From the NCBI GenBank assembly GCA_963725535.1, contig CAVRYX010000001.1:75540-139539 (forward strand): 64,000 nt of DNA, written 5' to 3'. The translations under genes and the position numbers were made by a program. Origin of the DNA: an uncultured Solirubrobacterales bacterium. GTDB lineage: Bacteria; Actinomycetota; Thermoleophilia; Solirubrobacterales; Solirubrobacteraceae. A model generated the notes under the pieces. That model was not told the DNA's origin. It made no database searches and saw only the letters and a program-made list of their open reading frames with translations. Each line of letters opens with the position of its first letter. Positions within the stretch are counted from its first letter, which is position 1. Shown one piece after another: positions 6,361 through 58,013 of the stretch.

Positions 6361-6371
6361 GGCCGGACTGA

Positions 6372-6538
6372 GGGTCTATCCCTCTAGGGTCGCACGCCTG
6401 GATACGGCCGATGGCCTTACCCCTCCGGGACCCGTCACCGCGGCCTCGACGTGGGCCCACCACGCCTTCGGCCTTGCGTCCGCGCCTCGCTCGACCCTCG
6501 ACCGCCCCTCCGCACGCCCTATCGAGATAGACCCTTCG
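6372..6538 (-). repeat. family-1 ~165-bp structured repeat, copy A (inverted relative to copies B-D)
   Basis: Near-identical core to 20301-20467, 52171-52303 and 62035-62195. Terminal stem GGTCTATCTC/GGGATAGACC. Supplies the last codons and stop of the ferredoxin gene. Confidence 0.85.
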
Positions 6539-6734: not shown

Positions 6735-8251
6735 CGGCGTGAGGGACTCGCGAGGCGGGGCAGCGGAGCAGACCCAGCCTCTCGCCGCGCGGGCGCGCGA
6801 GTTGCTGAGGAGCGGGCTCGGTCTCCGTTGCCGTCACGGACCGCGGTGCGGGGGCGAGGCAGCTCGGAGGGCCGGGCACAGGCGGCGCAGGGGCCGTGGT
6901 GGGCGTGGTCGGTGAGCTCCTCGGCGAACACGTCGAGGGCGCTCGCGACGAGGCGGGCAGCGCCGTCGGGGTGCGAGCAGGCGCCGCGGCGGTTGACGAG
7001 GCCGGCGAGGGTCGCGATGCGAGTGATGGCACCCCTCCCACCCCGCTCACCGGGGGTACCCCCGCGCACGAGCTGCTCGAACGCGGCGGCGAGGGCGTCG
7101 AGGCCGAACACGCAGGGCCCGCACTGGCGGGCGGACTGCCCGGCGAGCCAGCGCACGAGACGGGCCATCTCGGCGACGGGACAGGCGGTGGCGGAGAGCA
7201 GCACGACGACACCGGCGCCGAGCGTCGCTCCGTGGGGGGCGAGGTGCTCGTCGGAGAGCGCCACGCCGCGCAGCAGCGAGGCGTCGAGCCAGGTGCCGGC
7301 GTAACCGCCGAGCAGCACGGCCCGCAGCGGCGCGGTGGCGCCCTCGGCGGCGTCGAGTAGGGCGGTGAGGGGGGAGCCGTGCTCGAGCTCGTAGACACCG
7401 GGAAAGGCGACTGGCCCGGAGAGCGTGACCAGCGCGGACCCGGGCTGCGCGGGTGTCCCGAGCTCGCGAAACCAGTCCGGCCCGTGCCGCGCGAGCAGCG
7501 CGAGGTGGGCGAGCGTCTCGACGTTTGAGACCAGCGTGGGCCGTCCCCGCACCCCGCGGGCGGAGGGCCGCGGTGGGGTGAAGGTGGGCAGCGGGGCGCC
7601 GCCACCGAGCAAGGAGACGAGCGCGGACTCCTGCCCGGCGACGTAACGAGAGGGCACTGCGACCAACTGAACGGTAGGCACCCCGCGGCGAGGGGCCCCC
7701 CGCTCGGCGAGCGCGAGCGCGCAGGCGTCGAGCGCGGAGGGGGCAGACTCACAGACACCGAGAAGGATCTCGTGCGCTCCCACGGTGGCGGCGGCTAGCA
7801 GGGCGCCGTCGAGCACGAGGTGGGGGAGAGAGCGCAGCAGCGTGCGGTCCTTGGCGCTCGCGGGCTCGCCCTCGGCGCCGTTGACGACCACGACGGGCCG
7901 GCCGCCGAGGGGGGAGCGGGAGGCGCCGGCGACCGCGCGAAGCTTGGTGGCAAGGGGAAAGCCCGCCCCACCACGGCCACACAGCCCGGCGGCCTCAACG
8001 AGCTCGATCAGATCAGGAGACCCGCGCCGCCCACGGGATGGAGGGCTTGCCAACCCCGCGGGCAGTGCCCCGTGCAGGTCGAGGTGGGCGCTGAGGGAGA
8101 GCGCCCCGCGGGTGGGGATCCCGGCGAGCAGCCGCGGTAGCCCGGCCGGCAGACCGTCGGGCCCCGGGCCGTCGGAGCCGGCGGGGACGAGGGAGCGCTC
8201 GGCGAGCCGTCCGTAGCCGCTCACAGCGAATCCCTGGCCGGCCTCGCCCAC
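6731..8251 (-). CDS. NuoF-like NADH dehydrogenase (51-kDa subunit family) protein
   Basis: GRGGAGFPLATKLRAV, VVVVNGAEGEPASAKDRTLL and the Cys motif ARQCGPCVFG, characteristic of the NuoF FMN/NADH/4Fe-4S module. Exact start uncertain. Confidence 0.8.
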   Translation of the reverse strand: MGEAGQGFAVSGYGRLAERSLVPAGSDGPGPDGLPAGLPRLLAGIPTRGALSLSAHLDLHGALPAGLASPPSRGRRGSPDLIELVEAAGLCGRGGAGFPLATKLRAVAGASRSPLGGRPVVVVNGAEGEPASAKDRTLLRSLPHLVLDGALLAAATVGAHEILLGVCESAPSALDACALALAERGAPRRGVPTVQLVAVPSRYVAGQESALVSLLGGGAPLPTFTPPRPSARGVRGRPTLVSNVETLAHLALLARHGPDWFRELGTPAQPGSALVTLSGPVAFPGVYELEHGSPLTALLDAAEGATAPLRAVLLGGYAGTWLDASLLRGVALSDEHLAPHGATLGAGVVVLLSATACPVAEMARLVRWLAGQSARQCGPCVFGLDALAAAFEQLVRGGTPGERGGRGAITRIATLAGLVNRRGACSHPDGAARLVASALDVFAEELTDHAHHGPCAACARPSELPRPRTAVRDGNGDRARSSATRAPARREAGSAPLPRLASPSRR

Positions 8252-8258
8252 CGCCGTC

Positions 8259-9038
8259 TCACGGGCTCACCACGATGCGGGAGGAGGAGCGGGACGCGGA
8301 GGAGCGGCCCAGCAGCGAGGCGGGGGTCCCGGAGCGCCGCGCCCATTCTGTGCCGAGCGGCCCGGAGGGCAACCACAGCAGGAGGCCCACGGTGAAGACG
8401 GCAGTGCCCCCGAGCGCGAGGCCGCGTACGCGCGCGGGCGCCGCGGTCCAGGAGCCGAGCGTGCGCACGACCACGGCAGTGACAACAACCGCCAGGCAGG
8501 CGACAGACAGCACCAGCAGCCACGTGGACCGGACGTCCGAGCCGGTGCCAAGCGTGTGCAGCAGCGCCACCGGCCAGCAGGCGTAGGCCAGCCAGTGCGT
8601 GGCGCGCCAGCCGCGAGCCCCGACGCGGGTGCGCAGCAGGCTCGTGAGGATCACGGCGAGCACCAGGTCGAACGCGACGGCCCCGAGCCCCAGCCAGAAG
8701 GGCCGGTAGGAGCTCACGAACGGCACGAAGGCCGCGAGCAGCGAGATCGGCGCGAACGTGTCGAGCACGGCGGTGAGGATGTGCAGCACGAGGAACACGA
8801 GCGCGAGCAGCGAGACGGAGCGGTGCAGGCCGTCCACGACGAACCGCGGCCAGCGCGGCGAGGACCAGCGCCGCACGTCGGCGACGCCGAGCGCGACAGC
8901 GAGCGTCAGGAGCAGCAACGCGACGGCGCCGGTGGACCGGGTGAGGTACCAGTCGAGCGACGGGCCGACCGAGGCGAGGGGGGAGAGGGGGAGAGGAGGG
9001 GGGTCATAGGGGATCGTCCACGTGTGTGGGTGTCCCAA
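8259..9038 (-). CDS. ferric-reductase-like (MsrQ/YedZ-type) transmembrane heme-b protein
   Basis: Six predicted TM helices with conserved His (LHRSVSLLALVFLVLHIL; THWLAYACWPVALLHTL). The only in-frame start is TTG 9036-9038, which lies inside repeat family 2 copy a. Confidence 0.7.
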   Translation of the reverse strand: MGHPHTWTIPYDPPPLPLSPLASVGPSLDWYLTRSTGAVALLLLTLAVALGVADVRRWSSPRWPRFVVDGLHRSVSLLALVFLVLHILTAVLDTFAPISLLAAFVPFVSSYRPFWLGLGAVAFDLVLAVILTSLLRTRVGARGWRATHWLAYACWPVALLHTLGTGSDVRSTWLLVLSVACLAVVVTAVVVRTLGSWTAAPARVRGLALGGTAVFTVGLLLWLPSGPLGTEWARRSGTPASLLGRSSASRSSSRIVVSP

Positions 9039-10179
9039 CGAGCGGGTGCGCGCTGGCCGAAACGGGGATGCTGGCCGAAACGGGGATGCGCGCCGGAGGC
9101 GCGTGTCTACCGGCTTCGGTCGAAGGCGAGTGTCTCCCGGCTTCGGTCGTCGTGCCCCGCGTCCAGGCCCGGTGTGCCACCGACGCGGCGGGCCAGTCGG
9201 CGAGCGTCAACACAGCGCCGTCGTGGGCGACAAAGCGCGCGGGCAGGCCGAGTTGCTCGAGCCAGGCCGGCGCACGCGCCTGGCGCACGAGCGCGGCGGT
9301 GGCGGCGATGTTGGCATCGGCGCAGGAGGCCGCGGCGACGCTGACGGTGCGCCATGGGCCACGCACGGGAGCGCCGGTGGCGGGGTCGATCAGGTGGTGC
9401 GAGGTGGCGCCGGCGTGGCGCCAGCGGCGCACGGCGGTGGAGGAGGTGGCGAGGCCGCCGGAGGCGATCGTGACCGTCTGCCCGGGAGCGAGGGGGTCGG
9501 CCCGGTGGTCGTCGGTGACGTGGACGCGCCACCCGCACGCGGGGGCGGCGCCGGCGGTGGCGAGGTCCCCGCCGAGGGAGACGAGCACCCCGCAGCCGCA
9601 CGCGGCGTGGATGGCCTGGGCCGCACGGTCGGCAGCCCACGCTTTGGCGGTGGCGCCGAGGTCGAGCACCACGCCGCGGGGAACGCGGACGGTGCGCGCC
9701 GAGGTGTCGAGGGCGACGGTGCGGTGGCCGCTGCGAAGCCCCACGCGCACCACCGGAGGAGCGGGTCGTGAGTGGCACTCCGCGCTGCTCGCCCCGGAGT
9801 CGGCGGGAACCGGCTCAAGCAGCCGCCAGTCGCGGTCGTAGCCGGCGAGGATCAGAGCGGCGCCGACAGTCGGGTCGACGTCGCCGTCGGTCTGCTCCGC
9901 GGCGCGCAGCGCGACCAGGAGCGCCTCGATCAGCAGCGGGGCGACCGGCACGGGTCGCCCCCCGGCACAGGCGTTCACACGAGAGAGGTCAGAGTCGGGA
10001 CGAAAGCGACTGCAGGCCCGGTCGAGCGCGTCGAGTTCGCGCGCGAGGAGTGCGCTCGCACGGGGCAGCCAGAGGGGGTCGAGGACACGCAGCACGACAG
10101 TCGTGCCGAGTGCCTCCCAGCGGGCCGTCGCCGGCGCGGCGGTGGGTGTGGAGGGGTGGGGGTGCGGGTCGGGGCGCAC
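9004..10179 (-). CDS. apbE: FAD:protein FMN transferase (ApbE family)
   Basis: ApbE motifs: SRFRPDSDLSRVN, DPTVGAAL, LDLGATAKAWAADRA, LVSLGGDL, TSSTAVRRW..HHLIDPATG. The C-terminal ~50 aa are encoded by repeat family 2. Confidence 0.85.
   Translation of the reverse strand: MRPDPHPHPSTPTAAPATARWEALGTTVVLRVLDPLWLPRASALLARELDALDRACSRFRPDSDLSRVNACAGGRPVPVAPLLIEALLVALRAAEQTDGDVDPTVGAALILAGYDRDWRLLEPVPADSGASSAECHSRPAPPVVRVGLRSGHRTVALDTSARTVRVPRGVVLDLGATAKAWAADRAAQAIHAACGCGVLVSLGGDLATAGAAPACGWRVHVTDDHRADPLAPGQTVTIASGGLATSSTAVRRWRHAGATSHHLIDPATGAPVRGPWRTVSVAAASCADANIAATAALVRQARAPAWLEQLGLPARFVAHDGAVLTLADWPAASVAHRAWTRGTTTEAGRHSPSTEAGRHAPPARIPVSASIPVSASAHPLVGTPTHVDDPL
9008..9153 (-). repeat. family-2 mosaic palindromic repeat, copy a
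   Basis: Aligns with the reverse complement of 21491-21682. Built from units CCGAA(A/G)CGGGGA... and the inverse TCTCCCGGCTTCGG. Lies in the sense orientation of the minus-strand operon. Confidence 0.85.
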
Positions 10180-11689: not shown

Positions 11690-13592
11690 ACGACGGAAGG
11701 GAGCGAGTCTCCGCTGGCGGCTGGCCGGGTGGGTGGCATTGGTGGTGGTGCTCTCCACGGGGGTCGCCTTCGTGGCGGTCTACCGCGGCACCGGCACCCA
11801 GCTGCACAACCAGATCGACCACGAGATCGCGGGCGACGCCGGCGAGCTCGTCCACGCGCTCTCCTCCTCGGGCGCGCACACCCCCCGCCAGACGCTCTCC
11901 GCGGCCCGCGACTACGTAAGCGGTCAGCCCTTCAACGCGAGCTCCACGCTGCTGTTCGCGCTCGTCCCCGGCGCTGGGACTGCCACCAACACGCCAGAGC
12001 TGTTCGGCAACCCCGCGCCCGACGACGGGGAGAGCGTTGCGGTGCAGGAGCAGGAGAACCGGCTCTCGCACAGGTTGCTCACCGTGGGCGGAGGGTTCTC
12101 GACCATGGACCTGCCGGACGTCGGCTACCTGCGCCTGCTCAAGCGGCAGGTACGCCTCCCCGTCGGCCGCGCGCGCACCGACCGAAGCCGGGGGACACTC
12201 GCCTTTGGCTCGCATCCCCGTTTCGGCCAGCAGCTCGTGACGGTCGGCGTGGGGGAGCCGCTTGCGAGCGTGGCGCGCGCCCAGCGCGGTGTGGCGCGTG
12301 CGTTCATCCTCGCGGGCCTGCTCACGCTCGCCGGGGCGCTACTTGCCTCACTGGCGGTGGGCGCCCGCTTCTCGCGCCCGCTGCGCCGCATGGCAGCGGT
12401 GGCGGCACAGGTGGACGCCGGCGACCTGCACCCCCGCATCCACGACGTCGAGCGCGAGGGTCAGGAGGTGCGGGTGCTCGCGGACGCCTTCAACCACATG
12501 CTCGACCGCCTCACCGACGCGTTCGCGGGCCAGCGCGCGTTCGTCGCTGACGCCTCGCACGAGCTGCGCACGCCGCTGACCGTGATCCGGGGCCAGCTCG
12601 AGGTGCTCGCCGCCCAGCAGGAGCCCTCCGGCGAGGAGGTGCGGTGCGTGGAGCGCCTTGTGCAGGCGGAGATCGCCCGCGTCACCCGCCTCGTGGACGA
12701 CCTCCTAGTGCTCGCCAAGGCCGAGCAGACGCAGTTCCTGCGCCTGGAGCCGATCGAGCTCGAGCGCTTCGTGGAGGAGCTGTGGGGCGGCACCACCCTG
12801 CTCGCGCCGCGGCGCTTCGAGCTCGGGGAGGTGCCCGCAGGCACGCTCCTTGCCGACCCCGACCGGCTCGCACAGGCGCTGCGCAACCTGTTGAGCAACG
12901 CAATCGCTCACACCGGGCGGGTGGGTCACGGGCCTGGGCTCGTGCGCCTGGACGTCGAATGCTCGGACAGTCGCGGTGCGGGGTCGGGGCGTCCCGAGAG
13001 CGAGATCCCGGGAGCCCGGGGTCGGGGATTGGGGTGGGGGCCACCGACTGTCGAGCTGCCCGAGTGCCGGGGGCCGGGGCGCGAGTGGGTGCGCTTCGTC
13101 GTGCAGGACGACGGGCCTGGGATCCCCGAGGCGCAACGCGAGCGCGTGTTCGACCGCTTCCACCGCACCGACGCCGCTCGTGACCGCGCCTCCGGCGGCA
13201 CCGGCTTGGGCCTCGCCATCGTGCGCGCGATCGCCGAGGCCCACGGTGGGCGGGTGTCGGCGTCAGAGAGCTTCGCCGGTGGCGCCCGCGTGGAGCTCGA
13301 GCTACCTGGCTTCAACCATGCACCCCCGCCCAAGGCGAGCGGCCCTGAGTCCGTGCCGAGCGCCCCTGAGTCCGTGCCGAGCGCGCCCGAGTCCGTGCCG
13401 AGCGCCCCTGAGTCCGTGCCGAGCGCGCCCGAGTCCGTGCCGAGCGCCCCTGAGTCCGTGCCGAGCGCGCCCGAGTCCGTGCCGAGCGCCCCTGAGTCCG
13501 TGCCGAGCGCCCCTGAGTCCGTGCCGAGCGCGCCCGAGTCCGTGCCGAGCGCCCCCGGGATAGTGCGGAGCACCGCTCGGTCCGCGCCGTAG
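11679..13592 (+). CDS. sensor histidine kinase (HAMP-HisKA-HATPase) with three in-frame insertions/expansions
   Basis: H-box FVADASHELRTPLT, N-box LLSNAIAHT, G-boxes DDGPGI and GTGLGLAIV. Overlaps the regulator gene by 11 nt. Confidence 0.85.
   Translation: MPAERRKGASLRWRLAGWVALVVVLSTGVAFVAVYRGTGTQLHNQIDHEIAGDAGELVHALSSSGAHTPRQTLSAARDYVSGQPFNASSTLLFALVPGAGTATNTPELFGNPAPDDGESVAVQEQENRLSHRLLTVGGGFSTMDLPDVGYLRLLKRQVRLPVGRARTDRSRGTLAFGSHPRFGQQLVTVGVGEPLASVARAQRGVARAFILAGLLTLAGALLASLAVGARFSRPLRRMAAVAAQVDAGDLHPRIHDVEREGQEVRVLADAFNHMLDRLTDAFAGQRAFVADASHELRTPLTVIRGQLEVLAAQQEPSGEEVRCVERLVQAEIARVTRLVDDLLVLAKAEQTQFLRLEPIELERFVEELWGGTTLLAPRRFELGEVPAGTLLADPDRLAQALRNLLSNAIAHTGRVGHGPGLVRLDVECSDSRGAGSGRPESEIPGARGRGLGWGPPTVELPECRGPGREWVRFVVQDDGPGIPEAQRERVFDRFHRTDAARDRASGGTGLGLAIVRAIAEAHGGRVSASESFAGGARVELELPGFNHAPPPKASGPESVPSAPESVPSAPESVPSAPESVPSAPESVPSAPESVPSAPESVPSAPESVPSAPESVPSAPESVPSAPGIVRSTARSAP
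12177..12230 (+). repeat. family-2 repeat unit, copy d, in frame inside the kinase sensor domain
   Basis: ACCGACCGAAGCCGGGGGACACTCGCCTTTGGCTCGCATCCCCGTTTCGGCCAG, translated as TDRSRGTLAFGSHPRFGQ. Confidence 0.8.
12961..13056 (+). repeat. palindrome-bounded ~95-bp insertion inside the kinase ATPase domain
   Basis: Arms GCTCGGACAGTCG / CGACTGTCGAGC; internal direct repeat CGGGGTCGGGG. Encodes roughly SDSRGAGSGRPESEIPGARGRGLGWGPPTVE, part of the extra ECSDS...ECRGPG segment between conserved HATPase strands. Confidence 0.7.
13344..13553 (+). repeat. 21-bp tandem repeat, about 10 copies, encoding (PESVPSA)n at the kinase C-terminus
   Basis: Two alternating variants: CCTGAGTCCGTGCCGAGCGCC and CCCGAGTCCGTGCCGAGCGCG. 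Head-to-tail, in frame, no spacers. Confidence 0.9.
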
Positions 13593-15588: not shown

Positions 15589-16443
15589 GTGCCACGAACG
15601 CTGCCGCCTGAGAACGAGTGGACGATTCCGAGTCTGCGCGAGCCGCGTTACTCGCAGTCGCTGGAGCGCGGCCTGGCGATTCTCGGCTGCTTCACGCCCG
15701 ACCGCCCCGTGCTCGGGATCGCCGAGATCGCCGATTCGCTCGGTATGAGCCGCTCGACCACCCACCGCTATGTGATCACCCTGGTCGCGCTGGGCTACCT
15801 GGAGCAGGACGCCTCACGCAAGTACCGCCTCGGGCTGCACGTCACCGACCTCGGGATGTCCGCGCTGAACTCCACGTCCCTGCGTGAGCACGCCCAGCCG
15901 TACCTGGACGAACTGCGCCGGCGGACGGGGTACACGATCAACGTCGCGGTGCTCGACGGCCCCGAGATCGTCTACATCGCGCGCTCCCGCTCCCACCGCC
16001 GTGCCCAGCAGCGGATCGACCTGGGGCTCGCCCTCGGCTCGCGCCTGCCGGTGTACTGCACCTCGATGGGCAAGCTGCTGCTCGCGCATCTCCCCGACCG
16101 CGAGCGGCGCGAGCTGCTCTCGGAAATCCGCCTGGAGCGACGCGCTCCCAACACGATCACCAACAAGCGGCTGCTGCAGATCGAGCTGGACCGCATCCGC
16201 GAGGACGGCTTTGCGATCAACGACGAAGAGCTCACGCCCGGCCTGCACTCGATCGCCGCGCCGATCCGCTCGGACTCCCGCGAAGTCGTCGCCGCCGCCA
16301 ACATGGCGGCGCACAGCTCGATGATCGTGCTGCAGGATCTCATCGACCACCTCGGCCCCCACCTGATCGCCACGGCCGACCGCATCTCCGCGCGCCTGGG
16401 CTACCGCCGCGACGACGAGCTCGCAACGACAGACGTCCGCTGA
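15589..16443 (+). CDS. IclR-family transcriptional regulator
   Basis: YSQSLERGLAILGCF...IAEIADSLGMSRSTTHRYVITLVALGYL, plus an effector domain. GGGAGGGA upstream of GTG. Confidence 0.9.
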   Translation: MPRTLPPENEWTIPSLREPRYSQSLERGLAILGCFTPDRPVLGIAEIADSLGMSRSTTHRYVITLVALGYLEQDASRKYRLGLHVTDLGMSALNSTSLREHAQPYLDELRRRTGYTINVAVLDGPEIVYIARSRSHRRAQQRIDLGLALGSRLPVYCTSMGKLLLAHLPDRERRELLSEIRLERRAPNTITNKRLLQIELDRIREDGFAINDEELTPGLHSIAAPIRSDSREVVAAANMAAHSSMIVLQDLIDHLGPHLIATADRISARLGYRRDDELATTDVR

Positions 16444-16540
16444 TCGAAGCCCGGGAGACAGGGGCCTCCGACCGAAGCGGGGGACACTCGCCTCCGGCGA
16501 GCATTCCCCGTTCGGCCAGCATCCCCGCTTCGGCCAGCGC
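16444..16540 (+). repeat. family-2 mosaic palindromic repeat, copy c (directly after the IclR stop)
   Basis: CGAAGCCCGGGAGACAGG...CCGAAGCGGGGGACACTCGCCTCCGGCGAGCATTCCCCGTTCGGCCAGCATCCCCGCTTCGGCCAGCGCG; same orientation as copy b. Confidence 0.8.
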
Positions 16541-16744
16541 GATGCGGCGTCCTCGGTCGCTCGTGTACCGATCGTCGATCAGGTGCGATCGACTGGTCGG
16601 CCAGCACACTTCGCGGGGTGGGCGGGCCTTCCAATCCTTGCCTCGCTTGCTCAGCGAACGCCTGTCGGAGGTCGCGACCGTGCCCTTCTGGGTGTACTTT
16701 TGTCTCTTCAGTCGGTTGGCAGCGCGGGCGGACGCGGCGTGGCG

Positions 16745-18223
16745 TCAGGCGCGGCGTTTGGGGTTGGGGCTGGCGCGTAGGGCCTGCGCTGCCGTGGAGA
16801 CGCGCAGCAGCACCGTCGAGTCCGCGGGCACGCTCGCTGCGATCGCGCCCGTCGTGCTGGTGACCGCGCCGGTCCACAGGTTGTGCACGTCGTAGCCGCT
16901 GCTCTTCGGCATTCCCACGGCGGCGGCGCTGGTCGCGATCTCGATCGACTTTCCCGAGCGGTTCAACAGCGCCACCGCGCGGGTGCCGTCGCTGAGCGGC
17001 TTGACCCACACCTCTCCCGAACCGCTAGAGGAGAGCAGCCGCGCCTGCACGCCCGCGGGGTCCTGGTCGATCGCGACCGCTTCGCGGTTGGAGACGGTGG
17101 TCTGGGTGGCGCTCGACATCGACACGAGGTCCTCGCTGATCATCAGCGGGGCCGCGAGCATCGCCCACATGCTGAACTGCGTGCGGAACTGGGCGGCCGA
17201 CATGCCCTGGTCGGGGCCGAGGTAGTCGGGGTCGTTCCAGTGGCCCGGCCCCGCCGCCTGCGGCTGGGCGGCATCCGCATCGAGGTTGCGCAGCACCGCG
17301 GTGAATTCCACGTCCCCTGGGACTCCGACGTCGGTGTCCGTGCGCCAGCTGTTGCCCACGCTCGGCCCGAATGTGTACGAGGCGAAGTTCGAGCCCGCGA
17401 GCGTCGGGACTTCGCTTTCGTACTGGCCCGGCTGCAGGAAGTTGCAGATCGACAGCAGCACCGGGCGGTGGCTTGCGTTGTGCACGATCGCTTCGTGGAA
17501 GGCTCCGTACGCCGCCGCCGGTTCAAGGTGCTGTTCGATACCTCCGCAGTAGTCCACCTTCACAGCGTCGAAGCCCCACGCCGCGAACGTGTTCACGTCC
17601 TGCTGGTAGTGCCCGTAGCTGCCCTGCCCCTTCCCGCCGCAGCCGTTTGTGCCCGCGTCGGTGTACAGGCCCACCTTCAGCCCCGCCGCGTGCAGCACGC
17701 TCGTCAGCCACGCCATCCCGTGCGGCCACTGCGTGGGGCTGACGACGATTTCCCCGGCGGCGTTGCGCTGGCCCTGCCACCAGCCCACGTCCAGCCACAC
17801 GTAGTTGTAGCCGTCCCGCGCCAGGCCGCGCGTGATGAGCTGGCTGGCCTGCTCGAGCACCGTCGCCTCGTCGTAGTGGGAGCCGAACGCGAAGTAGCTG
17901 TCCCAGCCCATGTACGGGGTCGGCGCCAACACACCGGCTGGGGTAGCGCCCCCACTGGCCTTGTTGGCGGCCTGCTGGTGCGCTCGCGCATCGGCGCTCG
18001 GTGCCGTCCCCAGCGCAACGATTACCACGCAGACACCACAGATCGCAGCCTGGATCCACCGATAACGGGCTGAGCATCCGGTGCCGGTGACCGAGCCAGG
18101 GGCAATCGACCGAACCTCCGTAGGGTGACCCCTCGGAGGGAGGGCGATTGATCCTGGCGATGCGTCATCCGGTGCCGGTGCGACCCCGGGATCGGAGGAT
18201 TCAGGCTTAGTGATGGCGCTCAT
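16745..18223 (-). CDS. alpha-galactosidase, glycoside hydrolase family 27
   Basis: PYMGWDSYFAFG, YNYVWLDVGWW, GLKVGLYTDAG, AWGFDAVKVDYCG, GHWNDPDYL. Start ATG 18221-18223 in ATGA overlap with the upstream gene. The remainder of the 856-aa track ORF is spurious. Confidence 0.85.
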   Translation of the reverse strand: MSAITKPESSDPGVAPAPDDASPGSIALPPRGHPTEVRSIAPGSVTGTGCSARYRWIQAAICGVCVVIVALGTAPSADARAHQQAANKASGGATPAGVLAPTPYMGWDSYFAFGSHYDEATVLEQASQLITRGLARDGYNYVWLDVGWWQGQRNAAGEIVVSPTQWPHGMAWLTSVLHAAGLKVGLYTDAGTNGCGGKGQGSYGHYQQDVNTFAAWGFDAVKVDYCGGIEQHLEPAAAYGAFHEAIVHNASHRPVLLSICNFLQPGQYESEVPTLAGSNFASYTFGPSVGNSWRTDTDVGVPGDVEFTAVLRNLDADAAQPQAAGPGHWNDPDYLGPDQGMSAAQFRTQFSMWAMLAAPLMISEDLVSMSSATQTTVSNREAVAIDQDPAGVQARLLSSSGSGEVWVKPLSDGTRAVALLNRSGKSIEIATSAAAVGMPKSSGYDVHNLWTGAVTSTTGAIAASVPADSTVLLRVSTAAQALRASPNPKRRA

Positions 18224-20241
18224 CGCCTGTGGTGAGATGACGCCCTTCCCCCTTTGCTCAGCGTGAGCGTAGCCGTCCTCAGAGTGGCGCTGAGCGCGCC
18301 CACCACCGTGCCGCTCACCGCGAGCCTCACCGGCACCTGTCGCAGGTGTGCGAGCAGGCGCCTGCCCGTGGCGTTCAGGGTGAGGTTGACCGTCAGCTGC
18401 TGGCTGGGTTTCAGGTGCACGGTGCTCGCGCTGACCGTCACCGTCGCGCGCCGAGCGCGCGCCGCCGCCACGGCCACCACGCGGGTGCCGTGGAGCGTCT
18501 CCACCACGGTGAGGCGCAGCGTGATCGTGCAGCTCCCCGCGGCCTGCGCCGAGCACCTCAGCGGCACGCTCACCGTGGCGCCCACCACCCGTGGGGTCCC
18601 GACCTGGGTCTCCGAGATCGCCCCGAGGCCGCCGGCGGGCACGGTCACGAACGAGCTCGTCGCGCTCTCGCTGCCGCCCGCGTTGGTCGCGGTCACGCGG
18701 CACTGCAGGTGGTGGGTCACGTCTGCGCTCGAGACGGTGTACGTGGAACTGCTCGCGCCGGCGACGGCGTTCGTGTCGCGCAGCCACGCGTAGCTCAGTG
18801 TCGCGCTCGCACTCCCGCTCCCGCTCACGCCGGACTTGCACGTGAGCCGCTGCCCGAGCGCGGGGATGCCACCGATCGAGGGGTGCGGCTGGACGAGCGG
18901 GGGGGCGAGCGTCTTGAACGTCTCGCCCAGACCCATCGACGTGCCACTCGCGCTGCTCGCCACCAGCCGGTAGTGGTAGGTCGTTCCGGCCGCGAGGGGG
19001 CCCAGCGTCGCGGTCACCGCCTGCGTCGCGCCACCCGCCGGGAGTGGAGTCGCGCAGGGCGCGCTCTGCCCGTACGCTTCGCTCGTGCCGTATTCGAAGG
19101 TGCAGCTCGTGAGCGTCGCGTCGTCGGGGTTCACCGTGCCGGAGACGTTCGCCGCGGTTTCGCTGAGGGCGGTCGGCGTGCCGGTGGCGGCGGTCGGCGG
19201 GGGGACGCGCGTGACGAACACCTGGCCGGCGCTGTCCACGGCTGCGCAGAGCCCTTCGGCCACGCACGAGACTCCCGACAGCGCCCTGCCGGGGTCGATG
19301 CCGTCGAAAATCCACGGGGGCGGCGTAGCGGTGGGGTTATCGCCGGCGTAGGCGCCCCCGCCGCTGTCCACGGACACGCACAGGCCGGAGGCAGCGCACG
19401 AAACGGCCGTGGGCGCGCCGGGTGCTCCGAGTGCGGGCGCGAACGCCGGCGTCCAGTTCCAGGTGGGCGCTTCGTCGGTTGGGTCCCCGTTCGCCAGCAC
19501 GTTGCCTTCGCCGTCGACCGCCACACACACTCCGGCAGGAGCAGGGGCACAGGAGACCGAGACGAGGTTCGGGCTCAGGTCGATCGGGCTCGGGTGCCAC
19601 GCGCCCCCGGCCGGTTCGCGGCTCACGAGCGCCTGGCCGGCGTTGTCCACCGCCACACACAACGCCGTGGAGGCGCACGAGACCGAGCTCAACGCGTGCC
19701 CGGAGTCGATCGGCACACGGCTCCACCCCGCACCCGCGCCGGCGGTGGGGTTGGTGCTGAGGTACGCGTCACCGGCCTTGTCGACGGCTACGCACAACGC
19801 GCTTGACGCGCAGGAGACCCCGGTGAACGCCGGGGCTCCCTCGATCGCCACACCGCTCCACCCCGCGCCCGCCCCGGCGGTGGGGTTGGTGCTGATGAGC
19901 ACGCGGCCTGCTCCGTCGACGGCCACACAGAGCGCGTTGGCGGCGCAGGAGACCCCGGTGAGGGCCGTTTTGTCGTCGATTTCGTGCTGGCTCCACGTCG
20001 CACTGGCACCGCTGTCCGGGTTGGTGCCGATCAGCGCGTGGCCTTCCTTGTTGACAGCCACGCAGAGGGTCTCCGAGGCGCAGGAGACTCCGGTGAGGCC
20101 GGCGCCGTCGACTTTGACCGTGCTCCACCCGAGGGTGGGCGCCGCTCCGGCGGGCGCAGCCGCCAAGCAGGCGCACGCGACGGCGCACAGCAGCGCCGTG
20201 AGCGTTGCGGGGATGGTGGCCGTGGGACGGTCCAAACGCAC
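18220..20241 (-). CDS. secreted repeat protein: ~8 Cys-pair propeller-like repeats + FN3-like + Ig-like domains
   Basis: Signal peptide LTALLCAVACACLAAAPAGA. Repeats of the form LTGVSCAs..LCVAVD..G..l.stNPt about every 45 aa. TYHYRLVA and LTCKSG...LQCRVTATNAGG modules. GTG start at 20241 after GGGGAGG. Confidence 0.7.
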   Translation of the reverse strand: MRLDRPTATIPATLTALLCAVACACLAAAPAGAAPTLGWSTVKVDGAGLTGVSCASETLCVAVNKEGHALIGTNPDSGASATWSQHEIDDKTALTGVSCAANALCVAVDGAGRVLISTNPTAGAGAGWSGVAIEGAPAFTGVSCASSALCVAVDKAGDAYLSTNPTAGAGAGWSRVPIDSGHALSSVSCASTALCVAVDNAGQALVSREPAGGAWHPSPIDLSPNLVSVSCAPAPAGVCVAVDGEGNVLANGDPTDEAPTWNWTPAFAPALGAPGAPTAVSCAASGLCVSVDSGGGAYAGDNPTATPPPWIFDGIDPGRALSGVSCVAEGLCAAVDSAGQVFVTRVPPPTAATGTPTALSETAANVSGTVNPDDATLTSCTFEYGTSEAYGQSAPCATPLPAGGATQAVTATLGPLAAGTTYHYRLVASSASGTSMGLGETFKTLAPPLVQPHPSIGGIPALGQRLTCKSGVSGSGSASATLSYAWLRDTNAVAGASSSTYTVSSADVTHHLQCRVTATNAGGSESATSSFVTVPAGGLGAISETQVGTPRVVGATVSVPLRCSAQAAGSCTITLRLTVVETLHGTRVVAVAAARARRATVTVSASTVHLKPSQQLTVNLTLNATGRRLLAHLRQVPVRLAVSGTVVGALSATLRTATLTLSKGGRASSHHRR

Positions 20242-20300
20242 GCCTCCCCGTAACACGGGCCGCGACCCACGGTTGCGCTGTGCTCTGGCCCCACCGCTTA

Positions 20301-20467
20301 AGGGCCTATCCCGATTGGGGCGTGCGGCTGAGGCGGTCGAGGGTCGAGCGAGGCGCGGACGCAAGGCCGAAGGCGTGGTGGGCCCACGTTGAGGCCGCGG
20401 TGACGGGTCCCGGAGGGGTAAGGCCATCGGCCGTATCCAGACGTGCGAGCCAAGAGGGATAGGCCCT
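20301..20467 (+). repeat. family-1 structured repeat, copy B (full length)
   Basis: AGGGCCTATCCCGATTGGGGCGTGCGGCTG...CCAAGAGGGATAGGCCCT, with a 10-bp terminal stem plus a second 4-bp helix. Confidence 0.85.
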
Positions 20468-20767
20468 AAGGCTGCGCCGCGTCCACATCGAGGGACCGTC
20501 CAGCGGCGCGCACGGGAGCGCGGTGGCGGTGGGGGGGACGCCGGGGATCTTGTGTGCTGGCGTTCGAGCTTCAGACGCCGGAGGTTAGCGAGCCCTTCAG
20601 TCGTCACGCGCTGGTGGCAGGGGAGGACCCGGGTCGCAGAGACATTAGTCTACAATCCTCTGTGAGCCACCGAAGCTCCGTCTGGTTCCTGTCTCTCAAA
20701 TGACCTGCTTGTAAAAACCATTCGACCCACGTGACCTGTACGCCCGAGTTTTGGTGTACGGTCTCTT

Positions 20768-21685
20768 GTGTATATGCCACGGAAACGACTGGTTGGCTTA
20801 TCGGCCGGGGAGGCTGTACTGGGGCTCGTGATCGAGCAGCCCGACTCCGCCTCGCGACTCGGCGCTCGCCTAGTCGAGCGCTTCCGCTCCGCGCAGTTCA
20901 CCCGCTCCACCGCCCACAACGCGCTGAGCCGCCTCGCCCGGCAGGGACTCGTGCAGGTTCTCGCCGAGGAGGACGGGGCGCAGGAGCACCGCTACGAAGC
21001 CACGCCGCTGGGTGTCGAGCACTTCCGCGCGTGGTTGCGCGCCTGCACCACCGCGGCCCCGGCCCTGCGCGAGGAGCTGCACGCGAAGGTCGAGTTCTGC
21101 ACCTCCGCCGACCTGCCGCGGTTGATCGAGGCGATCTGCGCCGAGGAACGGGCCTGCGCGAGCATGTTCGCGGCCGCCCAGGGGCGTCTGTCGGAGGCCG
21201 AGCTCGTCGCCCCGCGGTGCTCCACCGTGCAGGAGCGGTGGTCGGCGCTCGCGCGCCGCGCGGTCCTGCGCGACGAAGCGGCGCTGTGGGGCACGCGGTT
21301 CAAGCGCCTGGAGCGCCTGCGGGCGCGCCTGGAGGAGTTGGGCGAGGTCGCAGAGGAGCCGGTGCGCGGGGCCGTCGCGGGGCCGGACGAGGAGCCGGCG
21401 CGCCATGAAGCGCCGCGCGGGGTTGCCGGCGAGCGGGCGCGCGAACTCGCCGAGGAGCCGCTGTTGGGGCGCGGCGCGCCGTCGCTGGGCACGACGACCG
21501 AAGCAGGTAGACACTCGCCTTCGACCGAAGCCGGGGGACACGCGCCTCCGGCGCTGGCCGATTTGGGGATGCGAGCGGAGCGAGCGTCTCCCCAATCGGT
21601 CCCCGGTTCGGCCAGAATCGCCGGTTCGGCCAGCGCACACGCGCTCGGTGGGTACCCCACACACGTGGACGATCTCCCCCGATGA
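20768..21685 (+). CDS. PadR-family transcriptional regulator with long C-terminal extension
   Basis: Winged-helix GEAVLGLVIEQPDSASRLGARLVERF...STAHNALSRLARQGLV...RYEATPLG. The last ~65 aa are encoded by family-2 repeat copy b. Start 20768 or 20774. Confidence 0.75.
   Translation: MYMPRKRLVGLSAGEAVLGLVIEQPDSASRLGARLVERFRSAQFTRSTAHNALSRLARQGLVQVLAEEDGAQEHRYEATPLGVEHFRAWLRACTTAAPALREELHAKVEFCTSADLPRLIEAICAEERACASMFAAAQGRLSEAELVAPRCSTVQERWSALARRAVLRDEAALWGTRFKRLERLRARLEELGEVAEEPVRGAVAGPDEEPARHEAPRGVAGERARELAEEPLLGRGAPSLGTTTEAGRHSPSTEAGGHAPPALADLGMRAERASPQSVPGSARIAGSASAHALGGYPTHVDDLPR
21491..21682 (+). repeat. family-2 mosaic palindromic repeat, copy b (longest)
   Basis: Reverse complement aligns with 9008-9153, plus a ~45-bp extra module. 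Ends 1 nt before the ATGA junction of the PadR and ABC genes. Confidence 0.85.
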
Positions 21686-22440
21686 CCGTCCTGTCTCTTC
21701 AGGGTATCGGCCTGCGCTACCGGCGCGGGGACCTGGCCAGGTGGCTGCTGCGGTCGGTCTGGCTCGACGTCGCGCCCGGGGAGGTCGTCTCGGTGGTCGC
21801 GCTGCGCTCCCAGGGCAAGACCACGCTGCTGCGGCTCGCCGCCGGCATGGTGGCGCCGGACGAGGGGCGCGTGCTGCTCGGGCGGACGGACCTCGGCGGC
21901 CTCTCCGACGCCGCCCACGCGCGCGTGCTGCGCGAGCAACTCGGCTGGGCGGGCCGCCTCGGTCCTGGCCTCGGCGTGCAGATGCTCGACTACGTCGCGC
22001 TGCGCCTGGCGCTCGGCGGGCGGGCCCACCGCTGCGCCGTGCGGTCGGTTGCGCTTCAGGCGCTCGAGCGGTTGGGCGTCGAGCACTGCGCCGAACGGCG
22101 CTGGGGTGAGCTCTCCGACTGGGAGCGCGTGCTCGTGGAGCTCGCCCAGGCGCTCGCGGGCACTCCGCGGCTGCTGCTGGTTGACGACCTCCTCGACGGA
22201 CTCGGGGCGCGCGAGACCGAGGAGGTCTCGGTGCTGGTGCGCGCACTCGCCGAGGAGCTTCGCCTGGGCGTGCTGATGACCGTCTCCGACCCCGAGGCGG
22301 CGCTCTGCTCGCACCGCGTCCTCTCGCTCGCCGGCGGTCGCCTGACGGCGCTCTCAGGCGGGGGCGCTTCCGAGCCCGGTGTCGTGATCGACTTTCCGCA
22401 CGGGCGCCCTCCAGGCCTGCGCGACGCACGTTGGGGGTGA
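21682..22440 (+). CDS. ABC transporter ATP-binding protein with degenerate catalytic motifs
   Basis: ABC fold alignment. Walker A reads ALRSQGKTT, signature reads LSDWER, and Walker B reads LLLVDDLLDG with no catalytic Glu. Confidence 0.7.
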   Translation: MTVLSLQGIGLRYRRGDLARWLLRSVWLDVAPGEVVSVVALRSQGKTTLLRLAAGMVAPDEGRVLLGRTDLGGLSDAAHARVLREQLGWAGRLGPGLGVQMLDYVALRLALGGRAHRCAVRSVALQALERLGVEHCAERRWGELSDWERVLVELAQALAGTPRLLLVDDLLDGLGARETEEVSVLVRALAEELRLGVLMTVSDPEAALCSHRVLSLAGGRLTALSGGGASEPGVVIDFPHGRPPGLRDARWG

Positions 22441-29825: not shown

Positions 29826-32276
29826 CTACTTCTTGCTCTTCTTGCCCTTCTTGCCACCCTTCTTCTTCTTGGCGGCTACATGCGCCTTCTTGCCCTTGAC
29901 CTTGACCTGCGCCTTGGGCGGGTCGGTGAGCGCCCCGGGGAGCGTCGTCACCAGCTTGGTCAGTGCACCAACTTCTTCTTCGTGCTTCTTGAGTTCTGCT
30001 TCGCGCCTTGCCTTTTCGGCTGCGGCTTCCGATTCGCGCCTTGCCTTTTCAGCGGCTTCTGCCGCTTCGCGCTTTTCGGTGTTGACCTTGATTTCTTCGG
30101 CGGTTGCTTTTTCTTTTTCTTCTTTCGCCTTTTCTTTTTCGTTCTGCCGCTTTTCGGCTTCTTCTTCCTTCGTGTTCTGCCGTTCTTCAGCGGCCTGTTC
30201 CTTTTCGTGCTGGGCTTTTTCGGCGGCTACTTCCTTTTCGCCCTGAGCCTTTTCAGCGGCTTTCTTTTCTGCGGCCGCTTTTTCTTCAGCGGCTTTCTTT
30301 TCTTCTGCTGCTTTTTCTTCGGCCGCTTTCTTTTCTTCTGCTGCTTTTTCTTCAGCGGCTTTCTTTTCTTTCGCCCCGATGTTCGTCGAGAAGTCGACGA
30401 GGTGGTCGCGGACGATCTCCTCGCCTTCATACCTGGCGGTCAGATCGACCGATGAGGTCGTGCTGTTGACCAAGTCGATCGCGGCCAGGCCCAGGTCGTT
30501 GGTCGTCACACAGAGGTGATCGGAGCCTTCGTCTGAGGGATCCCTCACATAGCTGCCGCCCAGGTAGACCACGCTCCCCTTGCCCAGCAAGTCACTGGGA
30601 TCTTCCAGCTCATCTTCGTTTGTGGGGTTGGTGAACTGGTAGAGCCCGGTTTCCTGCTGTGCGTGGAAGCACACGGTCTCACCGACGATCGGCCGTCCGT
30701 CGATGTCCTGCGCCTTGGCGACGACGATCCGAACGTTCTGTTCTTCTTTGCCGTTGCCCTTGGGGAACTCAAAGAATTCCTTTTCCCACAGCGACCTGAC
30801 TTTCTTGGTCAGCGATCCTTCCGAGTTCTGCGAGCTGTAATCGACCGACTGGTACGGATACACAGCAGTGGCAGAGATCGACGATTCGCCGATGACTTCT
30901 TTGTACAGGCCTTTCAGATCGCAGCCACCGTCGGCGTTCTTGACGATCTTGCCCGCTTCGCTTTCGCCTTCGGCTCCACCGAAGACCGGGATGTGGTTGA
31001 AGTAGAACCCGTCGCCCGGCGTGTACTTCACGAGCACTTCGCCCCGCTCATCCGTGTAGAACGTTTCATTCAACGAACCACTCGGAGTCTGGTAGTAGCT
31101 GGGGCCCTCGCCTTCGGTGCGCTGCAGGCATCCCGTCGATCCCGCGACGCGTTCTCCGCTGCTGTGAACCGAAGTCCAGAACGTATACGGTTCGGGGTGT
31201 TTGTTCAGGAACGCCGGGAAGTCCCCGCCGGGGCTCGGTCCGTCGATCCCAGACGCCTGGGGAACGGGACGATCGGTGGCGGGGATGTACGCGCCGTAGT
31301 AGGGGTTGGCCGAGTAGATTTCAGCCTTGTCCGCGCCTGAGATCTGACCCACGCCGCCAAGGCCGCCTTCGTTCGGCGCGAGATGCACGTCGATGCGAAT
31401 CGCGGGCATCGGGGCGTCGTCAGCGTTGAGAATGCCATTGCTGATGAGCGTTTCGGGGGCCTCCGGATCGTACGGTCCGAATACGCTTGTGTTCAGGCTG
31501 TCTTCCGGGCTTCCGTGGATGTCCCACAGGTCCGGGTTGGTGCCCTCCGGTTCCAGTTCTTCGGAGCTGGTCGCCAGCGTATCGGCCAGGGTCGGCCAGC
31601 TTGCAGGCAGCGTGTAGCTCGTTTCGGGGAGGAGGTTGTGCAGCGCTGAGCCCGGTTCGACCGGGAAGCTGCCCGTCACCTTGACCTGAACGAGACCCTT
31701 GTCCGCGTTGGTTTCTGGTTCCGAGAACGGCGACGGCACGAATTCACCGTTGCCCGAGGGGTCGCCCCCGTAGGGGAGCTCGGCCAGCGACGGCTTGTTG
31801 ACCGTCAGCCAGATCACGAGGAACTGATGCGAGAACACGATCTTGCCTTCTGCGTTCGTGACGACCGCCCTGATCCGGGCGAGGCCTGGATTCAGCGACT
31901 TGTAGTCGATCTTCACGCACCCGGCTTTGATCGATTCCTGGGGGCTGCCTTCGCTCGGAGCGAAGAACGCAGAGGACCCGGCATCAGGGGCTGGGAGCTC
32001 GGCCGCTTCCGGCCGGCCGGACCAGTCCTCGAGCTGGAAGTTGACGAGCTGGCCGCTTTCTTCGCTGGTTGCGATGGCCGGGTCGCACGCCACGAGGCGC
32101 ACGTGCTCGCCCACCCACGCCACATACGGGACGTTGGCGCTCTGCGGGCCGTCACCTGCCGGCCCCGGATTGGGAGCGGCAACGGCGCCTGCCGTGAGCG
32201 AGCCCAGGGCCAGCACCGCCGCTCCTGCCGCGGAAGCGAGTCCCGCGATCATTTTCCTTTTGCTTTGTGGTCGCAT
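29826..32276 (-). CDS. large secreted protein of unknown function with Glu/Lys/Ala helical stalk and polybasic C-terminus
   Basis: 816 aa. Signal peptide MIAGLASAAGAAVLALGSLTAGAVA, ~620-aa globular region with no family recognised, ~150 aa of KAAEEK-type repeats, ending KKKKGGKKGKKSKK. AGGAGGAGG upstream. Lower GC than the flanks. Confidence 0.8.
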   Translation of the reverse strand: MRPQSKRKMIAGLASAAGAAVLALGSLTAGAVAAPNPGPAGDGPQSANVPYVAWVGEHVRLVACDPAIATSEESGQLVNFQLEDWSGRPEAAELPAPDAGSSAFFAPSEGSPQESIKAGCVKIDYKSLNPGLARIRAVVTNAEGKIVFSHQFLVIWLTVNKPSLAELPYGGDPSGNGEFVPSPFSEPETNADKGLVQVKVTGSFPVEPGSALHNLLPETSYTLPASWPTLADTLATSSEELEPEGTNPDLWDIHGSPEDSLNTSVFGPYDPEAPETLISNGILNADDAPMPAIRIDVHLAPNEGGLGGVGQISGADKAEIYSANPYYGAYIPATDRPVPQASGIDGPSPGGDFPAFLNKHPEPYTFWTSVHSSGERVAGSTGCLQRTEGEGPSYYQTPSGSLNETFYTDERGEVLVKYTPGDGFYFNHIPVFGGAEGESEAGKIVKNADGGCDLKGLYKEVIGESSISATAVYPYQSVDYSSQNSEGSLTKKVRSLWEKEFFEFPKGNGKEEQNVRIVVAKAQDIDGRPIVGETVCFHAQQETGLYQFTNPTNEDELEDPSDLLGKGSVVYLGGSYVRDPSDEGSDHLCVTTNDLGLAAIDLVNSTTSSVDLTARYEGEEIVRDHLVDFSTNIGAKEKKAAEEKAAEEKKAAEEKAAEEKKAAEEKAAAEKKAAEKAQGEKEVAAEKAQHEKEQAAEERQNTKEEEAEKRQNEKEKAKEEKEKATAEEIKVNTEKREAAEAAEKARRESEAAAEKARREAELKKHEEEVGALTKLVTTLPGALTDPPKAQVKVKGKKAHVAAKKKKGGKKGKKSKK

Positions 32277-52170: not shown

Positions 52171-52303
52171 GGGGCCTCTCCGGATAGTGGTGTGCGGCTG
52201 GGGCGGTCGAGGGTCGAGCGAGGCGCGGACGCAAGGCCGAAGGCGTGGTGGGCCCACGTCGAGGCCGCGGTGACGGGTCCCGGAGGGGTAAGGCCATCGG
52301 CCG
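52171..52303 (+). repeat. family-1 structured repeat, copy C (diverged left end, right end truncated)
   Basis: Core GTGCGGCTGGGGCGGTCGAGGGTCGAGCGAGGCGCGGACGCAAGGCCGAAGGCGTGGTGGGCCCACG... is near-identical to copies B and D. Confidence 0.8.
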
Positions 52304-57883: not shown

Positions 57884-58013
57884 TCACCCCAGTGTAGGTG
57901 GCGCGCGGGCCCGCCAGGTGGACGCCCGGCGCGCAGACGCGGGGCACGGAGGCCCCTGCGCACACGCCCGCGGTGAACGCACCCACCCGCGCGGACGATC
58001 CCCCCAAATCAGC

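Follow-up and report, generated by a model that had tools for sequence, protein, structure and literature searches.

The 64,000-nt window analysed here (G+C 72%), from an uncultured Solirubrobacterales bacterium, carries short GC-rich palindromic repeats at four loci. An earlier note on this DNA had taken the four copies for one mosaic family that sits on operon gene junctions and donates C-terminal tails, stop codons and a start codon to the adjacent genes. Its observation is partly confirmed, and its interpretation is in part right. The repeats are probably two unrelated short GC-rich families stacked on each other, namely a selfish mobile hairpin (family A) and a start-codon cassette (the T module, or family B) that resembles the mycobacterial interspersed repetitive unit (MIRU). 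The 53-nt hairpin, which nests in itself and occurs across a soil order, is the wider phenomenon and is more interesting than the story of the gene junctions. The two junctions and the four family A copies are organised as follows; loci from related genomes are cited by L numbers.

8259-9038, minus strand: ferric-reductase-like membrane protein; start uncertain, TTG at 9038 is the sole in-frame canonical start
9004-10179, minus strand: ApbE-family gene; Pfam domain ends at residue 314 of 391, last ~56 codons with negative coding potential
9004-9051, minus strand: 3' part of a T module, GCGCACCCGCTCGTTGGGACACCCACACACGTGGACGATCCCCTATGA; TGA stop of ApbE at 9004-9006, ATGA at 9004-9007, TTG at 9036-9038
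9052-9149, minus strand: family A, two nested layers, 98 nt; in frame in the ApbE tail (TEAGRHSPSTEAGRHAPPARIPVSASIPVSAS); inner hairpin at 9070-9122, 78.8 bits; absent from the orthologue in L066
9150-9160, minus strand: 5' arm and loop of the T-module hairpin, GCGGGGCACGA; family A stands in place of the 3' arm, which is CGCCCCGC in L066
12179-12231, plus strand: family A, single unit; in frame in a histidine kinase gene, before TM2/HAMP; peptide DRSRGTLAFGSHPRFGQ; 78.3 bits
16441-16538, plus strand: family A, two layers; directly after the IclR gene; inner hairpin at 16469-16520, 69.4 bits
20768-21685, plus strand: PadR-like winged-helix regulator; conserved core to ...RLRARLEEL, variable tail after it
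21484-21494, plus strand: 5' arm and loop of the T-module hairpin, GCTGGGCACGA
21495-21634, plus strand: family A, three nested layers, 140 nt; the innermost (21553-21602) inverted; 44 extra in-frame residues in the PadR-like tail
21635-21685, plus strand: 3' part of a T module; ends in ATGA at 21682-21685, the PadR-like stop overlapping the ABC start
21682-22440, plus strand: ABC ATPase; start is the ATG of ATGA

The four copies exist far above chance. Motif CGACCGAAGCCGGGGGACAC (U1) was matched five times and motif CATCCCCGTTTCGGCCAGC (U2) seven times, compared to 0.03 and 0.05 matches expected from shuffles, and motif CCCACACACGTGGACGATC (T) was matched three times with none expected. A covariance model found significant family A copies at these four loci only, and a repeat finder linked the same four. 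A weak model match at 7664-7712 was unconvincing as a further copy. The limits given earlier are refined here; at the two junctions they had run family A together with the flanking T-module parts (9004-9051, 9150-9160, 21484-21494 and 21635-21685). Only two of the four copies lie at junctions between co-directional genes; 12179-12231 is genic, and 16441-16538 follows IclR ahead of a convergent gene. Pfam supports the ApbE, ferric-reductase-like, response regulator, histidine kinase, IclR and ABC ATPase assignments. The PadR label comes from a sub-threshold full-length Pfam match (E = 0.0075); the best orthologue of this protein is 91% identical.

The 53-nt hairpin element and its insertion

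The family A unit is 53 nt long and consists of CGA, a 45-nt imperfect hairpin and CCAGC, with the single-unit consensus CGACCGAAGCCGGGAGACAC-nnGCC-TyC-GGCnn-mATCCCCGTTTCGGCCAGC. Its two arms are imperfect inverses that fold into one hairpin. The T module is a separate family. Positions 4-8 pair with 44-48, 11-14 with 39-42, 16-17 with 37-38, and 21-25 with 29-33. Across these 16 pairs, 93.6% of the cells are paired and seven pairs are changed on both sides; none of 500 shuffles matched this stem, and slid controls gave only 2-6 double-changed pairs. The loop is 3 nt, or 5 nt with the closing C-G pair open. Reading the loops TTCG, TCCG and TGCG as a UNCG tetraloop was dropped, as the stem register leaves a 3-nt loop. 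The sense RNA folds at -28 kcal/mol (z = -4), and the antisense RNA folds better (-33.7 kcal/mol). Wobble pairs in the stem comprise 11 G-U and 20 A-C cells. Since an A-C pair is G-U on the opposite strand, the sense RNA is not marked as the selected form. Rfam gave no match at gathering thresholds in the window and three related loci, and none at E ≤ 10 on 8900-9300. Three copies were scanned for promoter and terminator consensus sequences, and nothing relevant and no terminator-like tail turned up. The element consensus has no stop codon in any of its six frames; by our estimate this happens by chance in ~18% of cases at the G+C of the window, and is hence unremarkable alone.

The single 53-nt unit is the most frequent form (73 of 152 clusters). 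Longer forms have n left arms followed by n right arms and a length of 53 + 45(n-1), and in further forms the inner copy is inverted. The spread of the element was scanned with the query CGACCGAAGCNGGNNGACAC in one genome per prokaryotic species (185,579 species genomes). More than 117 stretches were matched, and among the matches listed nearly all came from metagenome-assembled genomes (MAGs) of Solirubrobacterales/Solirubrobacteraceae. The element was absent from the few listed matches in other phyla, from two viral contigs and from all plasmids checked. It recurs in dozens of independent assemblies, both short-read and long-read, with constant length and boundaries. In loci not chosen for the element, its density was ~1 site per 36 kb (1 per 16 kb in the window), and a genome contains roughly 100-250 sites.

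Comparison of filled and empty orthologous sites revealed a fixed exchange. In 44 of ~51 pairs, which represent at least 20 independent sites, exactly 8 nt at the empty site correspond to 53, 98, 95, 140 or 143 nt at the filled site, a gain of 45, 90, 87, 132 or 135 nt. Insertion of a single unit thus adds a net 45 nt, i.e., 15 codons. No target-site duplication was found in the pairs compared. The empty state is common to up to seven species, which indicates that the filled state is derived. The replaced 8-mers are ~55% identical to the element ends CGA...CCAGC (12 pairs, compared by hand), with G at position 2 and C at position 8 enriched (17 of 24 each in a hand count), and target bases are sometimes kept at the first one to three positions of the element. 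Insertions into genes, between genes and into existing copies all follow this rule of 53 nt for 8 nt, and the target resembles the element ends only loosely. Where copies are nested, CGGCGAGC, which forms the 3' half of the apical stem of the outer unit, has given way to the inner unit. In an inverted-inner copy of L048, worked out by hand, the inner unit replaces GGATTCGC and the arithmetic is unchanged. Family A also recurs within three other repeat families, namely the T module, the GCGTCCTCGGTCGCTCG module and the GAGGGGCC...CTGCGCCACCCTC module.

The window and its relatives contain several such exchanges, and presence of family A at one gene differs between close species. The histidine kinase gene has three histories: the window, L062 and L066 differ in where it carries insertions. 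At the site of the 12179-12231 copy the L062 orthologue is 12 residues shorter, and L066 has its own copy nearby. Further downstream in the same gene the window is empty:

12799-12808, no strand assigned: empty site; window 8 nt GCTCGCGC (GCGCGAGC on the element strand)

Here, L062 carries a three-layer antisense insertion of 45 residues. A second empty site in the window holds the 8-mer CGTCCCGT (element strand) where L081 has a 53-nt element at 1509-1561. At the site of the 21495-21634 copy, eight orthologous loci hold 8 nt. The IclR 3' end reads CGC/TGAGCTGC/GCGATGC in L166, with 8 nt between the shared flanks, and CGC/TGATCGAAG...GGCCAGC/GCGATGC in the window. The window copy opens with TGA, the stop codon of IclR, in place of the CGA of the element consensus. 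The stop is at the same position in both, so it was kept by IclR and not donated to it. The next gene is a convergent alpha-galactosidase, and this copy is neither genic nor at an operon junction.

To place family A relative to genes, genes in the retrieved loci were called with a codon-usage log-odds model trained on long ORFs (open reading frames), and orthologous duplicates were removed by comparison of the far flanks. Of the resulting 119 independent sites, 71 were genic (60%), 40 intergenic and 8 at gene edges. Many genic copies have a strong coding signal on both flanks and often lie mid-gene. Ten hosts checked with Pfam were real genes whose domains flank the insert or are split by it: aconitase, SMC, methylmalonyl-CoA mutase, acyl-CoA synthetase, RecG, FtsK, an MMPL transporter, a PMT_2 glycosyltransferase, a Wzy_C protein with two insertions and a relaxase-like protein. 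All 71 genic copies belong to the in-frame length class, compared to 33 of 40 intergenic copies (Fisher p = 0.0005), and out-of-frame variants (51, 55 or 92 nt) occur only outside genes. The reading of the earlier note, a palindromic repeat specific to the lineage and translated within host proteins, is supported.

At least five of the six frames are used by the inserts, and in the window itself the kinase copy is read in a frame different from that of the two tails. Two phases are preferred in the high-confidence set: a sense phase that encodes DRSRETRASGANPRFGQ (16 of 25 sense copies) and an antisense phase that encodes LAETGIRAGGACLPASV (11 of 14 antisense copies). These are the two frames with the least unfavourable codon usage, and codon usage inside the inserts resembles that of non-coding DNA. 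All four window copies lie in the sense orientation, which had been read as a sign of selection at the RNA or protein level. Among the relatives, 45 genic copies are sense and 26 antisense (p = 0.03). At this proportion (63% sense), four of four has p = 0.16, and the all-sense pattern of the window does not extend to the family. In the high-confidence subset the counts are 25 and 14 (p = 0.11). An orientation tally of the kind that the note asked for thus gave a modest sense excess within genes, but none for intergenic copies between co-directional genes (14 vs 12).

The T module and the shared protein tails

The T module is ~80 nt long and consists of a covarying hairpin, a spacer CGCsCACnCGC... 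and CACACGTGGACGATCCCC, often with ATGA just after. The hairpin reads GCkGGG-(TAGGAGG / CACGACG / CACGGAGG)-CCCmGC, and its stem occurs as GCTGGG/CCCAGC, GCCGGG/CCCGGC, GCGGGG/CCCCGC, GGCGGG/CCCGCC and GTCGGA/TCCGAC. In a scan for the T motif, copies were numerous in one group of Solirubrobacterales MAGs and reached 10 or more in single genomes; the chance matches outside that group lacked the remainder of the module. No tandem arrays were present among the copies listed. Context was counted for 34 independent copies with a hairpin. The next gene is co-directional in 24 and on the opposite strand in 8, so that 24 of 32 modules point toward the next gene. A called gene start lies within 6 nt of the module in 6 copies and within 7-120 nt in 12. 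The same-strand upstream gene ends before the module in 17 copies, and an upstream ORF enters it in 6. In a subset, an ATG follows 1-4 nt on, mostly as ATGA, and the ATGA-bearing copies are spaced 1 or 4 nt past CCCC. In 25 of 27 ATGA-bearing copies, the TGA has the same frame as a GTG inside the T motif; as one spacing is common to most of them, this is a lead only. Reading the module as a leaderless-mRNA promoter, with GACGAT as the -10 box, was considered and set aside, as a possible -35 box lies at an unsuitable distance. The window contains one more module:

57937-58005 (start approximate; motif near 57982), plus strand: third, diverged T module; no family A, no ATGA; between two opposite-strand genes

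The ApbE protein ends in ...TTTEAGRHSPSTEAGRHAPPARIPVSASIPVSASAHPLVGTPTHVDDPL and the PadR-like ORF in ...TTTEAGRHSPSTEAGGHAPP...SASAHALGGYPTHVDDLPR. As had been noticed, these repeat-encoded tails of two unrelated proteins are near-identical, and they share the end ..AHxLxGxPTHVDD... The proposal that the palindromic element donates tails, stops and start was not supported by comparison with orthologues, where the same tail end, TGA and ATGA come from the T module alone. At the ApbE junction of L066, the T module, the same tail end (..AHPLVGTPTHVDDPL before the stop) and the same ATGA are present without family A. In L209, ApbE stops ahead of a T module that likewise lacks family A. Seven PadR orthologues end in ...AHALGGxPTHVDDPPR, a stop and ATGA without family A, and one more has a decayed copy. 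Five more distant PadR orthologues have no T module, yet their stop still overlaps the ABC start as GTGA or ATGA. In eight species the PadR-like ORF is read through to one and the same TGA. At both window junctions no stop of the upstream ORF precedes the module, so that this ORF continues to the TGA of the ATGA, which gives the shared tail end. Family A was probably inserted into the T-module hairpin at a later stage.

We infer that the ApbE and PadR-like tails are read-through by-products and not functional domains. The tails score -0.20 per codon with a G+C at third codon positions (GC3) of 0.69-0.75, compared to +0.20 to +0.32 and 0.89-0.91 in the cores. The ApbE tail, searched against 5.8 billion proteins, gave one match of 47 residues, which is no measure of spread. 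Across species, the PadR-like protein varies from 198 to 352 residues. In L119 and L123 its tail upstream of the T module contains tandem peptide repeats (EAPRDVAVESAYEAVVGTVE...).

The start codon attributed to the repeat also has another explanation. In L066 and L209, the ferric reductase starts at the ATG of ATGA, which is in frame (MTTPLSPLA...). Compared to L066 4546-4600 and L209 1394-1450, the C/T-rich run that follows the ATGA is 8 bases longer in the window (8975-9007, minus strand). The extra bases put the ATG out of frame and leave TTG 9038 as the only in-frame canonical start. This TTG lies within the T module, not within the palindromic element, and is not conserved (TGTCGGG in L066). 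Either the ferric-reductase start was shifted to TTG, or the C/T-rich run contains a homopolymer-type mis-assembly.

Family A was inserted independently at one spot of the T module in L003, L141 and L175, which makes the T-module hairpin a hot spot.

Origin of the two families and relation to known repeats

Family A would be a non-autonomous element that spreads within Solirubrobacterales chromosomes. Owing to the six stop-free frames of its consensus, an insert lengthens the protein instead of breaking the gene. Insertion into a gene would thus add a short peptide, and inserts would survive in tolerant linkers, loops and tails. Other hairpins appear to be favoured as targets, among them that of the T module and the apical stem of the element itself; such a preference leads to the nested U1-U1-U2-U2 forms. 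The hairpin would be kept as a DNA structure needed by a mobilising enzyme, not for a role in host mRNA. The junctions would have been built in steps, starting from an overlapping stop and start, as in the distant PadR orthologues. A T module would then have arrived with its own ATGA, and the upstream ORF would have been extended through it. In the lineage of the window, family A would finally have entered the T-module hairpin, in two layers at ApbE and three at the PadR-like gene, replacing CGCCCCGC and CGCCCAGC/AGCCCCGC, respectively, and lengthening both tails. By analogy, and with low confidence, the T module might act like the mycobacterial MIRU and keep the downstream gene translated via the -4 overlap.

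It is possible, though doubtful, that the rule of 53 nt in, 8 nt out and no duplication marks a previously undescribed DNA insertion mechanism. Such a mechanism could be a structure-guided exchange, in which the base of the folded 45-nt hairpin (CGA^CCAGC) is traded for an 8-nt stretch of target by a recombinase or repair pathway. If true, the gain of exactly 15 codons per event would allow in-frame remodelling of hundreds of proteins in a free-living bacterial order.

Several points weigh against a selfish hairpin stacked on a start-codon cassette. We know of no mechanism that swaps a fixed 8 nt of its target, and no transposase or recombinase was linked to family A. ATGA lies within 4 nt of only 7 of the 34 independent T modules, about a fifth. 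Gene calls came from the codon-usage caller, with Pfam on ten hosts only. The loci were retrieved by exact match to one arm, which biases the sample to young, well-kept copies. The sense excess within genes may reflect selection at the RNA level and not replication-strand bias, and the strong preference for two phases could mean that the encoded peptide matters.

The last two points lead to the rival explanations. A cis-acting RNA element kept by the host, such as an mRNA stabiliser, processing site or attenuator comparable to repetitive extragenic palindromic (REP) sequences in enterobacterial operons, would fit the stable fold, the covariation of the stem, the two copies at co-directional junctions and the modest sense excess. 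We nevertheless consider it unlikely, as 60% of the sites lie within ORFs, 37% of the genic copies are antisense, and orientation is unbiased between genes. The excess of A-C over G-U cells and the more stable antisense fold do not favour the sense RNA, presence varies at the same gene between close species, and the three copies scanned lack a terminator-like tail. The RNA-level selection suggested in the earlier note thus found no backing. Selection at the protein level, with the repeat encoding a functional tail or linker module shared between proteins, appears less probable still. It would explain why every genic copy is in frame, why two phases predominate and why the two tail ends are nearly identical. 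Against it stand the use of at least five frames, the different frames of the window tails and the kinase insert, the variable or absent tails of orthologues, the non-coding-like codon usage (to which the preferred phases are the least bad fit), the single short match of the ApbE tail and the common occurrence of the same sequence in intergenic DNA.

Errors of assembly or sequencing at GC-rich hairpins in long-read MAGs have hardly any probability as the source of the copies or of the ORFs that cross them. Many of the related genomes are indeed nanopore MAGs, and the 8 extra bases that shift the ferric-reductase ATG out of frame would fit such errors. However, length and boundaries are the same in dozens of independent short- and long-read assemblies, the frame is preserved in 71 of 71 genic copies, and eight species share the PadR-like read-through to one TGA. 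For family A as a whole the artefact reading is refuted; the 8-nt frameshift is the sole remaining case.

Large-scale in-frame gene invasion by palindromic repeats has its textbook case essentially in Rickettsia. The comparisons with the Rickettsia palindromic element (RPE) and with REP sequences and bacterial interspersed mosaic elements (BIME) that were drawn earlier are apt. RPE are described as in-frame palindromic repeats in many genes with no known transposase (Ogata et al. 2000, as summarised in PMC10969869 and PMC3184786). Functionally, RPE are the closest case: they share with family A the in-frame insertion into unrelated housekeeping genes, the added peptide in an intact gene, the additional intergenic copies and the lack of a known transposase. 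By taxon, sequence, size and the one-peptide rule, family A is outside the RPE. Among the matches listed from the species genomes, the element is confined to Solirubrobacterales MAGs, so that it is not a member of the RPE sequence families. The host of RPE is a reduced intracellular alphaproteobacterium, whereas family A resides in a free-living soil actinobacterial order of 72% G+C. RPE measure about 105-150 bp, compared to 53 nt per layer of family A. Each RPE family has a single orientation and frame and hence a single conserved peptide, whereas family A uses both orientations and at least five frames. Unlike RPE, family A copies nest and replace a fixed 8 nt of target.

With REP, REPIN and BIME, family A shares the short, high-copy, GC-rich imperfect palindromes with a stable hairpin, the mosaic clusters with other short motifs, the use of hairpins as insertion targets and the lack of a reported target duplication. 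Like a BIME, it is recurrently combined with other conserved motifs (three repeat families). REP are extragenic by definition, in contrast to the mostly intragenic family A, which also has no GTAG-type 5' tetranucleotide, has a longer unit and forms a single hairpin without a REP doublet. No gene flanked by inverted family A copies, the layout of a REP-associated tyrosine transposase (RAYT), stood out among the 240 retrieved loci. Miniature inverted-repeat transposable elements (MITE) such as Correia/NEMIS, ERIC and Nezha are likewise small and non-autonomous with inverted ends, and can extend genes at the 3' or 5' end by in-frame fusion. Family A differs from them in the loss of 8 nt without target-site duplication, and is far smaller than most. 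To our knowledge, it has no parent insertion sequence.

The T module is likened to MIRU by layout and not by sequence. MIRU (Supply et al. 1997, as described in PMC12548453 and PMC3184786) are said to "insert themselves at start codons", with a -4 overlap (PMC12548453). The T module is likewise an actinobacterial repeat in the 40-100-bp range that can lie between co-directional genes and at start codons, in the orientation of its neighbours. An ORF that crosses the repeat and ends in a -4 (ATGA) overlap with the downstream start is seen at the two window junctions and in their orthologues, whereas only about a fifth of the independent modules abut an ATG. Unlike in MIRU, the upstream gene ends before the module in most copies, and the copies listed form no tandem arrays. 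The literature searched on such repeats in Solirubrobacterales, Thermoleophilia, Conexibacter or Actinobacteria yielded no relevant description; the earlier note, too, was aware of none.

A Rickettsia-like gene invasion is thereby found in abundant, free-living, high-G+C soil Actinomycetota, with hosts that include aconitase, SMC, RecG and FtsK. It bears on the origin of new peptide segments, on gene annotation and on orthologue alignment in these MAGs, where repeats may be the source of tails, of start codons and of indels that look like signatures. The fixed 8-nt replacement and the gain of 15 codons offer a sharp, testable handle on the insertion mechanism. The T module would be a second actinobacterial case, beside MIRU, of start-codon repeats with an ATGA overlap.

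Other repeats in and around the window

The family A copy behind IclR is followed directly by a further repeat:

16539-16650 (end approximate), plus strand: third repeat family, after stop codons (GCGATGCnGCGTCCTCGGTCGCTCG-TGTGC..GCACA-CTTCGC..); interrupted at 16567-16605

The interruption is a shorter variant hairpin, ACCGATCG...GGTCGGCCAGC. This post-stop family is ~90 nt long (GCGTCCTCGGTCGCTCG-TGTGC..GCACA-CTTCGCTCnCTGCGTCCTTGCC..) and, besides the window copy, was seen in L166, L133, L154 and L179 as well as in L216, L011, L014, L081 and L113. Its small hairpin is another hot spot for insertion of hairpin elements, in either orientation.

The composite GAGGGGCC-(53-nt hairpin)-CGGCCnnnGGCCGGCTGCGCCACCCTC occurs in ~18 copies at different loci. 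This cluster of 18 copies with shared near flanks was considered as one orthologous locus or an RNA gene, and was rejected as such; it is a composite repeat. Its loci include L009 (3950), L033 (665), L102 (6617), L045 (5170), L115 (6298) and L107 (613), and it often lies ~20 nt upstream of a start codon on the opposite strand. L102 has an additional GAGGGGCC...CGGCCnnnGGCCGGCTGCGCCACCCTC copy without the 53-nt unit, and in L010 the composite is in frame within methylmalonyl-CoA mutase.

In the window, the histidine kinase gene ends in a 21-nt tandem repeat of ~12 copies (13336-13589), which encodes PESVPSA repeats at the C-terminus; this array is absent from L062. An 808-residue ORF at 29826-32252 (minus strand) contains 15-, 18- and 33-nt repeats and has no Pfam match. 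It lies within the only stretch of low G+C in the window (28-32 kb, 60-67%). A large protein encoded at 18220-20256 (minus strand) has internal repeats of 135 nt (45 residues) and a weak Tectonin match, and is probably a beta-propeller surface protein. Another repeat, family 1, is ~140-175 nt long and occurs at 6368-6508, 20296-20472, 52172-52303 and 62029-62201 with 80-100% identity. Its inverted ends of ~35 nt (GCTTAAGGGCCTATCCC...GGGATAGGCCCTAAGGC) give it a MITE-like look, and one of its copies lies just upstream of the Tectonin-like gene.

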